Numbered from the stretch's first letter, positions 23,176 through 54,523 are shown. The stretch: 64,000 nt of DNA from Escherichia coli (GCF_003334785.1 NZ_QOWV01000002.1); one strand, 5' to 3'. The notes: generated from the sequence alone by a model not told the origin. Numbers and translations are program-made.

Positions 23176-25029
23176 ATGAGACGATTTCTGACGACGCTGA
23201 TGATACTCCTGGTCGTGCTGGTGGCCGGGTTATCTGCGTTAGTGTTGCTGGTGAATCCGAATGATTTCCGCGACTATATGGTCAAGCAAGTTGCTGCACG
23301 TAGCGGTTATCAATTGCAGCTCGACGGGCCACTGCGTTGGCACGTCTGGCCGCAGCTTAGTATCCTCTCCGGGCGAATGTCTCTCACCGCCCAGGGCGCA
23401 AGCCAGCCACTGGTTCGCGCCGACAACATGCGTCTGGACGTGGCGCTTTTACCACTACTGAGTCATCAACTGAGCGTTAAGCAGGTGATGCTAAAAGGGG
23501 CAGTGATCCAACTGACGCCGCAGACGGAAGCGGTGCGCAGTGAAGACGCTCCGGTTGCACCGCGCGACAATACCTTGCCGGATCTGTCAGACGATCGCGG
23601 ATGGTCGTTTGATATATCCAGTCTTAAGGTGGCGGACAGCGTGCTGGTGTTCCAGCATGAAGATGACGAGCAGGTGACAATCCGCAATATTCGCCTGCAA
23701 ATGGAACAAGATCCCCAACATCGTGGTTCATTTGAGTTCTCCGGGCGGGTTAATCGCGATCAGCGCGATCTCACGATATCCCTTAACGGTACGGTAGATG
23801 CTTCTGATTATCCGCATGATTTAACGGCGGCTATTGAACAAATTAACTGGCAGTTGCAGGGTGCCGATTTACCAAAACAAGGTATTCAGGGGCAGGGGAG
23901 TTTCCAGGCCCAGTGGCAGGAGTCACATAAACGCCTTTCATTTAACCAAATTAGTTTGACCGCCAATGATAGTACGCTAAGCGGGCAAGCACAGGTTACG
24001 CTGACAGAGAAACCGGAATGGCAGCTGAGGCTGCAATTCCCGCAACTGAATCTTGACAACCTCATCCCGCTTAATGAAACCGCGAATGGTGAAAACGGTG
24101 CCGCGCAGCAGGGGCAGAGCCAATCAACGTTGCCGCGCCCGGTCATTTCTTCGCGTATTGATGAACCGGCCTATCAGGGACTGCAAGGCTTTACGGCTGA
24201 TATTTTGTTGCAGGCCAGTAACGTGCGCTGGCGCGGAATGAATTTTACAGATGTTGCCACGCAAATGACCAACAAGTCGGGTTTGCTGGAAATTACTCAA
24301 CTGCAGGGCAAACTTAACGGTGGACAGGTTTCACTGCCGGGCACGCTGGACGCGACATCAATTAATCCGCGGATAAACTTCCAGCCACGGCTGGAAAACG
24401 TTGAGATTGGTACCATTCTGAAGGCGTTTAACTATCCGATTTCGTTGACCGGAAAAATGTCACTGGCTGGTGATTTCTCCGGTGCTGACATAGATGCCGA
24501 CGCATTCCGCCACAACTGGCAAGGACAGGCACATGTCGAAATGACCGACACGCGCATGGAAGGGATGAACTTCCAGCAGATGATTCAGCAAGCGGTAGAG
24601 CGTAATGGCGGTGATGTGAAGGCCGCTGAAAACTTTGATAACGTGACGCGGCTTGACCGCTTTACCACCGATTTGACGTTGAAGGATGGCGTCGTGACGT
24701 TAAACGACATGCAAGGTCAATCGCCTGTGCTGGCGCTGACAGGGGAAGGCATGTTGAATCTGGCAGATCAAACCTGCGACACCCAGTTTGATATTCGGGT
24801 CGTGGGTGGCTGGAACGGGGAAAGCAAACTGATTGATTTCCTGAAAGAAACGCCAGTACCGCTGCGGGTTTATGGCAACTGGCAGCAACTCAATTACAGC
24901 CTGCAAGTGGATCAGTTACTGCGCAAACATCTACAGGACGAAGCGAAACGTCGCCTGAATGACTGGGCCGAGCGGAATAAAGATTCCCGTAATGGCAAAG
25001 ATGTGAAGAAGTTGCTGGAGAAGATGTAG
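23176..25029 (+). CDS. asmA: Outer membrane assembly protein AsmA
   Basis: 617 aa with N-terminal signal anchor; K-12 synteny after dcd. Confidence 0.9.
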   Translation: MRRFLTTLMILLVVLVAGLSALVLLVNPNDFRDYMVKQVAARSGYQLQLDGPLRWHVWPQLSILSGRMSLTAQGASQPLVRADNMRLDVALLPLLSHQLSVKQVMLKGAVIQLTPQTEAVRSEDAPVAPRDNTLPDLSDDRGWSFDISSLKVADSVLVFQHEDDEQVTIRNIRLQMEQDPQHRGSFEFSGRVNRDQRDLTISLNGTVDASDYPHDLTAAIEQINWQLQGADLPKQGIQGQGSFQAQWQESHKRLSFNQISLTANDSTLSGQAQVTLTEKPEWQLRLQFPQLNLDNLIPLNETANGENGAAQQGQSQSTLPRPVISSRIDEPAYQGLQGFTADILLQASNVRWRGMNFTDVATQMTNKSGLLEITQLQGKLNGGQVSLPGTLDATSINPRINFQPRLENVEIGTILKAFNYPISLTGKMSLAGDFSGADIDADAFRHNWQGQAHVEMTDTRMEGMNFQQMIQQAVERNGGDVKAAENFDNVTRLDRFTTDLTLKDGVVTLNDMQGQSPVLALTGEGMLNLADQTCDTQFDIRVVGGWNGESKLIDFLKETPVPLRVYGNWQQLNYSLQVDQLLRKHLQDEAKRRLNDWAERNKDSRNGKDVKKLLEKM

Positions 25030-25047
25030 GTTACCAGGTGACCAGTC

Positions 25048-25088
25048 CTGTAGGCCTGATAAGACGCGTAAAGCGTCGCATCAGGCGT
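25048..25088. repeat. REP element
   Basis: cctgtaggcctgataagacgcgtaaagcgtcgcatcaggcg. Confidence 0.8.
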
Positions 25089-25302
25089 TCGTGGCGGCAT
25101 CATTATATTCTGAATATGTAAGATCGAAGGCTGTTCCGTTCACTTGATGTTCCTCGCTACTATGGAACGCTCAAGCCGGTGAACGTGCCAGGGTGGCTCA
25201 ATCTCCACCACCCTGGCAACCCGGGCTCCCGGCGGTAAATCGCCGATGGCGCGGTTCCCTCATCTTATTCCTTTCGGCTATTGGGTAAAATGACCGATAC
25301 CA

Positions 25303-26886
25303 TCACACCTCGTACTCCATCTCGCCATCCTTACGCAGCGGTATAATCTGCACCTTCTGCACGCGATGGCTTTCTACCTGCAACGTTTTAAGCAAATAAT
25401 CCCCCACCTGAACTTCTTCGCCAGGTTTTGGAATACGCTGCAAATACTCCATCAACAGCCCGGCAATGGTGTGATATTCACGTTTTTCATCCAGCGGCAG
25501 CGGCACATATTGCACCAGATCCTCCAGCGGCATATGACCATTCGCCGTCCAGGAACCGTCCGCATTCTTCTGAATATCATGGCGGGCGTCGATCTCTTCC
25601 ACTTCGTTCGGTAAGTTACCGGCAATGGTTTCAGTGACGTCACTTAATGTCACAATCCCTTCCACCGAGCCAAACTCATCCACCACAAAAGCAAAGTGCG
25701 TGCGGGCATTACGGAACTGCTCCAGGGCAGGTAACAACGGCAAGGTTTCCGGGAACACCAGCGGCTGGCGAATCAACACCCGCAGGTTGAGCGGTTCGCC
25801 GCGCAGAGACTGTTGTAGCAGGTCGATAACGTGAACAACACCGAGCAAATCTTCTGCGTCATCACCGTCGGTAACCACCAGCCGCGTATGCTGATTTCGC
25901 TCCAGCAACTGGCGGATTTCTTCTTCCGGCGCGTTGAGATCGATATGCTCAATATCGTGGCGCGACGTCATAATGCTGCTGACGGTACGCTGGTTAAGAT
26001 TAAGTACCCGCTCAATCATCCGCCGTTCCTGCGGATTAAAGATCTGCTGGTTACCATGATCCACCAGCATGGACGCGGTTTCGGCGTCCAGTTCCGCATC
26101 TTCTTTTTGCCCGCTAAGCAGGCGCATTACCGCTTCGGTAGTCCGCTGGCGCAGCGTCTGGTTAGCGGAAAGAAAACGTCGCCGGTTAAAGATAGCCAAC
26201 TGATTGAGCGCCTCGATCATCACCGAGAAACCAATGGCAGCGTACAGGTAGCCTTTCGGAATGACGAAGCCGAAACCTTCTGCCACCAGGCTAAAGCCAA
26301 TCATCAACAGGAAGCTTAAGCAGAGAATAACGATCGTCGGGTGACTGTTAACAAATTGCGTTAACGGCTTGCTGGCCATCAACATCAGGCTGATAGCGAT
26401 AACCACGGCGGCCATCATGACCAGTAAATGGTCGACCATCCCGACGGCGGTAATCACTGAGTCGAGTGAGAAAATGGCGTCCAGTACCACAATTTGCGTC
26501 ACCACGCCCCAGAACTTCGCACCTTTGCGTTGTGTGGGATTATTGCTGTCTTTCCCTTCCAGCCGTTCGTTCAGCTCCATCGTGGCTTTGAACAACAGGA
26601 AGAAACCACCAAACAGCATGATTAAGTCGCGGGCGCTAAAGGTAAACGAGCGGAAGCTGAACAGCGGTTGAGTCAGGGTGACCAGCCAGGAGATTGACGC
26701 CAGCAGTAACAGGCGCATTAACATCGCCAGCAGCAGCCCGGTAACCCGTGCGCGGTCGCGCTGCTTCGGCGGTAGTTTTTCGGCGAGGATGGCAATAAAG
26801 ACCAGGTTATCAATGCCGAGGACCAGTTCGATCACAATCAGCGTGATTAACCCGGCCCAGATAGACGGATCGGCAATCCATTCCAT
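25303..26886 (-). CDS. yegH: TerC-family inner membrane protein with CBS and CorC_HlyC domains
   Basis: ORF track 25303..26952 trimmed to the ATG at 26886 ([18 protein letters not shown]); 527 aa. Confidence 0.85.
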
Positions 26887-53180: not shown

Positions 53181-54523
53181 TGAAAGTGAAGGCGGTTCCT
53201 GCTATTACATTCTATTTAAGTTTAATGCTGACAATTTTAGTGTTACTGTTTGGTAATGAACCAAATAAATCACAATATATTCTTGTTATAGCAACGATAA
53301 CAGTTTTTTATATCGCGTATATCACTAATAAAATAACTTCTCCGGCCAGCCTTCTCGTTATATCATCTTTTGTGTTTTTAGGTTGTCGACCTTTATTATC
53401 TTTGTTTGCAAACTATGATTACAGGATTGCCGATTGGTTTATTGAAGGATATATGGATGACGATGTGATTATGGCTAACTATGCTATAACATTAATGTAT
53501 TATGGTTATACATTGGGACTAATTCTATGCAGAAATACTGAAAAAATTTATCCGCATGGATCATATCCAGAGAAACAATTGCTAAAAATAAAGTTTCTTT
53601 TGACTTTATTTTTTCTGGGTTCGATAGGTATGGTTGTGAAAGGGATATTCTTTTTTAACTTTATAGAATCTAATAGTTATGTTGATATATATCAATCAAA
53701 TATAACAACGCCAATAGGTTATGATTTTCTGTCTTATTTGTTTTATTGTTCTTTTTTCCTTATATGTGCGTTTCATATACAGTTCAGAACAAATAAAAAA
53801 TTTCTTTTTATTGCGATATGCATTGCTGCATTTAGCACCTTGAAGGGTAGTCGTAGTGAAGCTATAACGTTTCTTTTAACGGTTACATGTATATATTTTA
53901 ATGAAGTAAAGACAAGAAACTTACGTTTGCTGATTACAATGATTTTTGTTTTTAGCGTCATTTTTGTGATTAGTGAATTTATCTCAATGTGGCGCACTGG
54001 AGGGAGTTTTATTCAATTAATGCAGGGTAATAATCCTGTTATAAACTTTGTATACGGCATGGGAGTATCATATCTTTCCATTTATCAATCAGTAAAACTA
54101 CAACTATTGTCAGGGGGGTATAATGTTACCTATCTATTCAGCCAGTTAATAATAACTTGCTCGTCAATATTTAATGTTAAATTGAGCTTGCCGGAAATAA
54201 GCTATAGCCATTTGGCCTCATACACAGCAAACCCAGAACTATATAATCTTGGGTTCGGACTTGGGGGAAGTTATTTAGCAGAATCGTTTTTAGCATTTGG
54301 TCTTATTGGGTGTTTCATAATACCCTTTTTACTTTTACTTAATTTAAATGTATTGGAAAAATACACAAAAAACAAACCAATCATATATTTTGTTTATTAT
54401 AGTGTGTTGCCACCTATATTATTCACACCAAGAGAGACTTTGTTCTATTTCTTCCCCTATCTTGTCAAAAGTATATTTGTTGCTTTTTTAGTTACATTAT
54501 ACATCCAGTATAAAAAGGATTGA
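53180..54523 (+). CDS. wzy: Putative O-antigen polymerase Wzy
   Basis: Multi-TM low-GC protein second in the cluster; ATG at 53180 overlaps the wzx stop (ORF track starts at the GTG at 53162); assigned by exclusion and topology. Confidence 0.6.
   Translation: MKVKAVPAITFYLSLMLTILVLLFGNEPNKSQYILVIATITVFYIAYITNKITSPASLLVISSFVFLGCRPLLSLFANYDYRIADWFIEGYMDDDVIMANYAITLMYYGYTLGLILCRNTEKIYPHGSYPEKQLLKIKFLLTLFFLGSIGMVVKGIFFFNFIESNSYVDIYQSNITTPIGYDFLSYLFYCSFFLICAFHIQFRTNKKFLFIAICIAAFSTLKGSRSEAITFLLTVTCIYFNEVKTRNLRLLITMIFVFSVIFVISEFISMWRTGGSFIQLMQGNNPVINFVYGMGVSYLSIYQSVKLQLLSGGYNVTYLFSQLIITCSSIFNVKLSLPEISYSHLASYTANPELYNLGFGLGGSYLAESFLAFGLIGCFIIPFLLLLNLNVLEKYTKNKPIIYFVYYSVLPPILFTPRETLFYFFPYLVKSIFVAFLVTLYIQYKKD

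Follow-up and report, generated by a model that had tools for sequence, protein, structure and literature searches.

Between the convergent ends of asmA and yegH in Escherichia coli lies a spacer that can fold into strong hairpins, which raises the question of what this sequence is, where it came from and whether it still does anything. An earlier note, made from the sequence alone, had suggested that it could be a 3′-UTR element or an unannotated small RNA. We examined the spacer within a 64,000-nt stretch of E. coli DNA, hereafter the window, using folding, homology searches, comparison across genomes and published data on transcripts and replication.

Results

The asmA–yegH spacer contains two hairpins

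The window covers the udk-dcd-asmA / yegH-wza region of E. coli. Open reading frames and RefSeq annotation place the hairpins between the convergent ends of asmA and yegH, where the earlier note had put them, in an intergenic region of 273 nt (Table 1). This region is identical to positions 2,139,486-2,139,758 of K-12 MG1655, and the identity between the window and K-12 covers window positions 25000-25332. The second reference used here, a RefSeq strain called identical, was tested for identity over the intergenic query and 600-nt gene ends. Neither K-12 nor this strain has any RefSeq feature in the stretch. A single REP palindrome lies 24 nt past the asmA stop codon and is absent from the K-12 features returned. 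It gave a naRNA4/REP-type Rfam match of 31.6 bits, below the gathering score of 59.5. The Rfam check proposed in the earlier note returned this adjacent, sub-threshold match and nothing on the hairpins themselves. Several strains carry an annotated 49-aa 'hypothetical protein' between yegH and wza (L003:4352-4501, L004:4577-4726, L005:4736-4885), which is not annotated in K-12 or in the intergenic-identical strain.

The perfect 11-bp hairpin, here called H3, is present in the inverted-repeat check exactly as claimed. Its arms, TGCCAGGGTGG (25186-25196) and CCACCCTGGCA (25208-25218), are complementary at 11 of 11 positions around an 11-nt loop, and on the minus strand an extra G·U pair gives a 12-bp stem. 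The neighbouring imperfect inverted repeat, H4, could also be located: cgttcac (25137-25143) and gtgaacg (25179-25185) form its outer stem and more pairs lie within, and the minimum-free-energy fold reproduced it. Perfect hairpins of at least 11 bp with a loop of 3-15 nt occur three times in the 64-kb window, compared with a mean of 0.37 in 30 dinucleotide-preserving shuffles. The other two, at 13087-13116 and 53584-53613, have 8-nt loops and the arms TGGCGGTTGAA...TTCAACCGCCA and, in the A/T-rich case, AAAAATAAAGT...ACTTTATTTTT. The fold of a 185-nt stretch gave z = −4.4 on the minus strand and −4.6 on the plus strand, and the folding energy of the relic defined below is −75 kcal/mol.

Table 1. 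Features of the asmA–yegH spacer and its surroundings (window coordinates), with the family copies that have no G-quadruplex (G4) motif
Feature	Position or copies	Strand	Basis
asmA CDS	23176-25029	+	617-aa ORF; RefSeq asmA in identical strain
REP	25054-25086		inverted repeat I1; adjacent to relic, outside the repeat-family element
RRS/TRIP1-family relic	25123-25287	-	nhmmer profile match; folding (G-rich) strand is window minus
Helix H4 (imperfect repeat and inner stem gttcc/ggaac)	25137-25185	-	A4 columns 234-240 with 279-285
Helix H3 (11-bp hairpin)	25186-25218	-	inverted repeat I5; A4 columns 198-233
Orphaned 3′ strands of P1-P4 and small junction hairpin	25229-25287	-	comparison with full-length THO-003 allele; nhmmer alignment
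Deletion junction	25280-25287		retained ATTGGGTA repeat, alignment A1
yegH (TerC-family) CDS	25303-26886	-	RefSeq annotation, identical strain and K-12
Rho-dependent termination region, asmA-sense	25312	+	Adams et al. 2021, Supplementary file 2, K-12 2139476(-)
G4-less copies	L013, L015-L016, L018, L020, L023-L024, L037-L041, L049-L051, L053		A4 columns 185-233

The hairpins belong to a truncated member of a repeat family

Homology of the spacer to other intergenic loci was visible in alignments A1-A3. A family profile was built from alignment A4, which holds 54 copies, both K-12 Replication Risk Sequences (RRS) included. With nhmmer it gave one match in the 64-kb window, at 25286-25123 on the minus strand (E=6.1e-28, 92.5 bits). 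The match spans profile positions 122-286 of 291, the 3′ 57% of the profile, and the same match was obtained in K-12; the K-12 sequences RRS-lysO and RRS-dusC scored 280 and 279 bits, respectively, with this profile. The latter two, at lysO and dusC, are the 222-bp elements described by Pham et al. (NAR 2023, 2024; PMC10287960, PMC11194060). TRIP1 (Rudd 1999), as it is cited in PMC11194060, consists of these two RRS and 'a third partial repeat' in K-12. The RRS papers themselves (PMC10287960, PMC11194060) make no mention of yegH, asmA or putP.

The matched segment is significantly similar to RRS-lysO and RRS-dusC, and it retains H3 and H4, which fold as they do in the family. It is without the 5′ partners of helices P1-P4, and part of the stretch orphaned in this way, at 25229-25246, refolds in the relic as a local hairpin. 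Its sequence reads GGAGAUUG at a place where GGCGA stands in the other copies examined, the long allele of the same locus among them. The region is thus securely identified as a truncated and diverged paralogue of the RRS/TRIP1 family, a roughly 280-nt structured intergenic repeat of the Enterobacteriaceae. We refer to it as the relic; it lies directly 3′ of yegH, on the same strand.

The relic arose by deletion from a full-length copy

The asmA–yegH spacer exists in alleles of different length: a 451-nt long form (THO-003), the 273-nt form of K-12 and the window, a 292-nt form in which another internal stretch is deleted (GPEC1209) and a 67-nt form with the REP only (UPEC-455U). The long allele reads ATCGGGTA ...178 bp... 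ATTGGGTA, and the K-12 and window alleles retain one copy of the repeat (alignment A1). In these alleles 178 bp has been deleted between 8-bp ATYGGGTA direct repeats, and both AYGGAY hairpins have been lost with it. Full-length copies are also found between asmA and yegH in E. whittamii, in two further Escherichia species and in a divergent 'E. coli' species representative. This finding indicates that the long form is ancestral and the window form a deletion derivative. Three independent deletion alleles, namely the K-12 type, the GPEC1209 type and the K-12 copy at putP-efeU, keep H3 and H4 and lose the core.

Allele frequencies were estimated from 60 evenly spaced rows of 5421 genomes, classed by the distance between the gene ends. 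Approximately 43% of this sample were of the K-12 type, ~28% long, ~5% of the GPEC1209 type and ~5% REP-only, and in ~17% the gene ends were too distant to be joined as one match. A direct count found the full-length asmA–yegH copy in 1425 of 5426 complete E. coli genomes (~26%). O157:H7, the one strain of the ~17% class that was inspected, has a RelE/ParE-family toxin and an HTH antitoxin in the spacer (L065:2257-3001) and neither the REP nor the RRS relic, and a figure of ~17% for the toxin–antitoxin pair is accordingly an extrapolation from the sample. The asmA–yegH spacer is a hot spot of gain and loss.

Other members of the family

The central ~210 nt of the long form show 82-86% identity to other intergenic loci in virtually every E. 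coli genome, with a median of three matching places per genome, and matches occur in Klebsiella and Citrobacter as well. The other E. coli loci are putP-efeU, aqpZ-lysO and dusC-yohP. A degenerate core-pattern scan of one genome per species yielded 50 loci in Escherichia, Citrobacter, Klebsiella, Kluyvera, Raoultella, Enterobacter and Pseudocitrobacter. The partial copy at putP-efeU in K-12 (L009:3845-4001) has profile positions 69-192 deleted, with H3 and H4 kept and the core lost; strain 23CRST050 (L006) has a full copy at this locus.

At dusC-yohP, the RRS was found in both orientations with respect to the flanking genes, within unrelated flanking spacers (K-12, L011:3067-3438; FDAARGOS_1258, L008:1880-2266). 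The K-12 arrangement is present in 3309 of 5426 complete genomes and the inverted one in 2000 of 5426 (~37%); other matches suggest O157:H7 to be among the inverted genomes. The inverted RRS-dusC appears to be at odds with the published conserved positioning and with the lagging-strand orientation in K-12. In Raoultella terrigena two core matches lie 151 nt from each other (L056:185-625), which points to a tandem or partial duplication. Metagenome-assembled genomes (MAGs) labelled Desulfacinum, Sporobacter and 'Proteobacteria' (L019, L021, L052) also gave core matches. The Sporobacter and 'Proteobacteria' matches look enterobacterial and probably reflect contamination or mis-binning. An origin from a mobile element was considered and rejected: there were no phage matches, and the 'plasmid' matches inspected were either chromosomal records under a wrong label or sequences with chromosomal housekeeping genes on them. 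The element ends showed neither terminal inverted repeats nor clear target duplications.

The family fold is conserved by compensatory changes

Alignment A4 comprises 54 non-identical copies with the window minus strand taken as sense, and the consensus fold with a hand-added closing stem has 61 pairs in 12 helices. Intact members are GC-rich and ~280 nt long, with a long closing stem, a two-hairpin arm bearing A-Y/N-GGA-Y loops, a small junction hairpin, and H3 and H4. Over the 61 pairs and 54 copies, 98.1% of the cells were paired, compared with 88.1% in column shuffles and 34-45% when the columns were slid by 1-3. Both sides had changed in 24 pairs, compared with 4-8 in the slid controls, and the covariation score was 0.342, compared with 0.05-0.08. 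Loop 1 (CAUGGAUG) and parts of the core were set by the search pattern, which makes them invariant by design; the pattern placed no constraint on the stems, the second loop, H3 or H4. In full-length copies loop 1 is accordingly AUGGAU as fixed by the pattern, and the unconstrained loop 2 is A-N-GGA-Y. The alignment contains 91 G·U cells versus 18 A·C cells. This excess indicates that the folding strand is the G-rich one; it corresponds to the minus strand of the window and to what was published as the 'sense' strand of the RRS.

Both helices seen in the window take part in this pattern. In H3 (columns 198-233), 7 of the 10 pairs have changed at both positions, with compensatory examples such as GCAGGGGG/CCCCCUGC, GUUAAGGG/CCCUUAAC, GCCAGGG/CCCUGGC and ACAGGGGG/CCCCCUGU. 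In H4 (columns 234-240/279-285), three pairs changed on both sides, as in GCGCUCC/GGAGCGC to CGUUCAC/GUGAACG. The recurrence of both helices with compensatory changes in 54 copies from several genera is the decisive evidence, and it confirms that the structure goes beyond chance. Together with the blank RefSeq annotation and the shuffles, the covariation bears out the earlier description of the region as an unannotated, noncoding and structured element that did not arise by accident.

The published 222-bp boundary of the RRS leaves out H4, which is conserved with covariation ~50 nt further 3′ (A4 columns 234-300). In RRS-type copies AAGGAG stands in the 3′ strand of H4, with AUGAUG after it, an arrangement that resembles a ribosome-binding site (L007:1929-1975, L008:1922-1970). 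No conserved ORF follows it. We rejected a leader with a small ORF, or a type I toxin, as a reading of this AAGGAG-N9-AUGAUG end, because the 'Shine-Dalgarno' is the covarying 3′ strand of H4 (GGAGCGC changing to GUGAACG) and because the downstream ORFs differ by locus (9 aa versus 27 aa).

The relic differs from active RRS in length, motif, orientation and position

In K-12 the RRS lie ~650 kb on either side of dif, with the G4 motif GGGGGTGCAGGGGGCGGCGG on the lagging-strand template (PMC10287960, PMC11194060). They stall DNA polymerases, which results in RecA/SSB-covered post-replication gaps, and this activity, as replication gap formation, has been demonstrated experimentally at the DNA level; the two RRS cannot be deleted together without compensating amplification (PMC10287960, PMC11194060). 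The motif has no further genomic copy (PMC11194060). In ssGap-seq of MG1655, the two prominent RecA/SSB peaks are those at lysO and dusC, and no peak at the yegH locus is reported. According to a 2026 preprint on the RRS, lagging-strand synthesis in vitro is blocked in ~66% of its encounters even with the C-rich strand of a full RRS.

Compared with the ~222-bp RRS, the relic is incomplete: the 5′ half is deleted and the sequence begins at profile position 122. H3 is homologous to the RRS segment that bears the motif GGGGGTGCAGGGGGCGGCGG; in its place the relic has GGGUUGCCAGGGUGGUGGAG, without the G4 motif. The corresponding stretch in the window is GGGTTGCCAGGGTGGTGGAG, with a G4Hunter-like score of 1.0, compared with 1.84 in RRS-lysO and in RRS-dusC. 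Fork directions were assigned from the positions of oriC and dif. On this basis the relic has its G-rich strand, the plus strand of K-12 at 2.1395 Mb, on the leading-strand template of the counter-clockwise fork and not on the lagging-strand template. The same reasoning recovers the published lagging-strand orientation of RRS-dusC and RRS-lysO, and RRS-dusC lies on the opposite strand to the relic. The position of the relic differs as well: the locus (2,139,5xx) is closer to dif than RRS-dusC (2.229 Mb) by 90 kb, and not ~650 kb from dif.

The G4 motif is also absent from all 17 Citrobacter copies and, among the five aligned copies of the yegH locus, from four (A4 columns 185-233); the remaining yegH-locus copy, L025, has retained its G-runs. 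The copies without the motif have G4Hunter-like scores of ~0.9-1.3, compared with 1.8-1.9, and have kept the hairpin through compensatory substitutions. These compensatory changes indicate that the hairpin, and not the quadruplex, is the conserved feature of the family.

Full-length copies resemble the TwoAYGGAY motif

For every full-length copy with a match in targeted scans, the best Rfam family apart from REP-type families was TwoAYGGAY (RF01731), always on the G-rich strand. The scores were 30.6 bits for RRS-lysO, 30.9 for RRS-dusC, 31.5 for the long yegH allele, 36.9 for an E. albertii copy, 28.6 for the yegH-locus copy of Escherichia sp. E1V33 (a partial match) and 26.8-28.9 for Citrobacter copies. 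Most matches span all 168 model positions, and all score below the gathering score of 43. RRS-lysO (L010:3037-3176(+)) and RRS-dusC (L011:3230-3381(-)) match the full-length model on the G4/sense strand. A match was missing in two of seven loci in one targeted scan, and a larger scan of three loci found nothing at E up to 0.1. The relic in the window has no RF01731 match, and both of the hairpins that would supply the two loops of the motif are deleted from it.

The RRS loops UUACAGGGAUGU and CCACAUGGAUGU resemble the SELEX consensus of CsrA, RUACARGGAUGU. The RMfam study linked TwoAYGGAY loops to a CsrA-binding motif, and in the alignment of Weinberg et al. 2010 the gamma-proteobacterial TwoAYGGAY sequences are multi-copy intergenic repeats in Psychromonas. 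In gene-level tables of E. coli CsrA CLIP, which are uninformative for intergenic RNA, dusC and ybjE are not flagged. We found no literature connecting the RRS with TwoAYGGAY. As a tentative proposal, which we hold to be possible though doubtful, the RRS family may be an ancient folded single-strand element related to TwoAYGGAY, in which the covarying ~280-nt fold with two CsrA-type ACA-N-GGA-UGU loops, and not the G4, is what has been selected. If this were true, at least part of the action of the RRS would go through a partner specific for the structure, either as RNA or as single-stranded DNA, and full-length copies without a G4 would be functional, for example the asmA–yegH copy carried by roughly one in four E. 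coli strains, ST131 among them.

Transcription across the relic

Scans for promoter-like and terminator-like sites were negative on either strand of the window locus, and negative also for RRS-lysO, for RRS-dusC and for the long allele; a search for a sigma-70-like site at the window locus likewise found none. The statement of the earlier note that there is no U-tract was upheld, as the stem is not followed by a T run. In the data of Adams et al. (eLife 2021), Rho-dependent termination was mapped to a region at K-12 2139476(-) and put in the antisense class with respect to yegH, with a Rho score of 7.69 (p=1.1e-18) and counts of 123/22 without and 128/176 with bicyclomycin (BCM). The window position given for it in Table 1 is our own coordinate conversion through the identity between window and K-12. 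From this mapped region, it follows that asmA-sense RNA runs through the REP and then the complement of the relic before Rho terminates it just beyond. Termination by Rho is consistent with the missing U-tract. A Rho loading site within the relic was rejected: the excess of C over G is modest there and strongest beyond it. The text-form supplementary files of Adams et al. on 3′ ends and Rho have no entry for yegH-sense or intergenic RNA. The relic presumably also lies in the yegH 3′ UTR.

The GC-rich stem of 11-12 bp between convergent genes might be taken for an intrinsic (Rho-independent) terminator common to yegH and asmA. However, the stem lacks a T/U run on either strand, the scan returned no terminator-like site, and termination of asmA-sense RNA at this place is Rho-dependent; an intrinsic terminator is therefore extremely unlikely. 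For a small RNA, either independent or derived from a 3′ UTR, one could cite the strong fold, its conservation on one strand and the resemblance of the parent-family core to an RNA motif. However, this RNA-motif-like part is exactly the part deleted here, Rfam is blank on the relic, promoter-like and terminator-like sites were not found, the 3′-end and Rho files have no yegH-sense or intergenic entry, and the locus is missing or replaced in >20% of strains. We consider a small RNA very improbable. A paper that seemed to link yegH to a small RNA concerned a claim about host miRNA and was set aside as irrelevant. Of the two possibilities raised by the earlier note, the 3′-UTR element is partly supported, in the form of passive read-through of the asmA 3′ UTR up to the Rho region, and no discrete small RNA is evidenced.

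A small protein is hardly credible. A 21-aa ORF (25198-25263(-); MREPRHRRFTAGSPGCQGGGD) does exist with AGGA upstream, but its ATG occurs only in yegH-locus copies, the aligned paralogues having UCG, CUG, CCG or CGG instead. Moreover, the stretch is made up of covarying helix strands, and the end of the ORF falls in the H3 loop.

Discussion

We consider it likely that the asmA–yegH spacer holds a decayed RRS/TRIP1 copy that is now a relic without RRS activity and is passively transcribed. The ~165 nt of the relic are the 3′ end of a paralogue from which the 178-bp deletion has removed the 5′ P1-P4 strands and both GGA-loop hairpins. H3 represents the segment that in a canonical RRS holds the lagging-strand-stalling G-quadruplex, and H4 is the imperfect repeat. 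The surviving half has weak G4 potential, a substitution at a loop position that does not vary in the other copies examined and its G-rich strand on the leading-strand template. RNA from the asmA side would cross it passively before Rho terminates transcription just past it, and in either transcript the hairpins of the relic may act at most as generic exonuclease barriers.

We infer the loss of RRS activity from the incompleteness of the relic, the lack of a G4, the wrong orientation and the mutated invariant loop position, and further from the >20% of strains that lack the relic and from the report of only two prominent ssGap-seq peaks in MG1655. Two observations run counter to a wholly inert relic. 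H3 and H4 could have been retained in the three deletion alleles by selection rather than by chance, and, by analogy with the block imposed by the C-rich strand of the RRS, the hairpins might have some residual effect on replication.

The main rival to an inert relic is that the retained H3-H4 module works alone, as a structure that blocks exonucleases at the 3′ end, as a pause element that assists Rho, or as a weak obstacle to replication on single-stranded DNA. Three independent deletion derivatives have kept this module, it is very stable on either strand by folding energy and z score, asmA-sense transcription crosses it with Rho-dependent termination ~25 nt past, and the RRS-C strand somewhat blocks polymerases. 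However, the module is dispensable, as ~5% of genomes are REP-only and ~17% have a toxin–antitoxin pair and no relic. The relic is mutated at the loop position where the other examined copies do not vary, the C>G skew that usually marks Rho loading is strongest beyond the relic, and no ssDNA peak has been reported at the locus. We regard an independent function of H3-H4 as unlikely and favour the inert relic.

The relic itself is of minor importance: an unannotated structured stretch of K-12 would be explained as a dead copy of a recently recognised element of genome architecture. The family is of wider interest. E. coli has more RRS-family loci than the two that have been studied, with a full-length, G4-poor and reverse-oriented copy at asmA–yegH and, in K-12, partial ones at both yegH and putP. 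The published description of the RRS is extended by a fold that covaries while the G4 is not conserved, by the likeness to TwoAYGGAY, by the extra full-length copy and by the inverted RRS-dusC. These observations bear on whether the functional determinant of the RRS is the G4, the fold or a bound factor.

Among known systems, the relic shares with REP/BIME elements that it is an extragenic palindromic repeat between convergent genes, and a REP lies 37 nt away from it. The two are nevertheless unrelated sequence families. REP are ~35 nt long and present in hundreds of copies, whereas an E. coli genome has 1-8 places that match the ~280-nt RRS family, with partial copies counted. An assignment of the relic to REP/BIME was rejected, as it has no similarity to REP and the REP of this spacer is a separate element. 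The window locus resembles TRIP1 in being a partial repeat of that family. It differs in that K-12 holds two partial copies, at putP-efeU and yegH-asmA, where TRIP1, in the description cited above, counts one. The copy at yegH is probably the undescribed partial repeat, since the putP-efeU copy is much closer in sequence. To TwoAYGGAY the likeness is that of the parent family only: full-length members have a long closing stem and two (A)YGGAY-loop hairpins and are multi-copy and intergenic, as TwoAYGGAY is in Psychromonas, whereas the family scores are sub-threshold and the relic is without the core. With the RRS themselves the relic shares the sequence family and is, like them, GC-rich, intergenic and highly structured; it differs in belonging to a diverged subfamily with the CGUUCAC-type H4, which is common to the Citrobacter copies.
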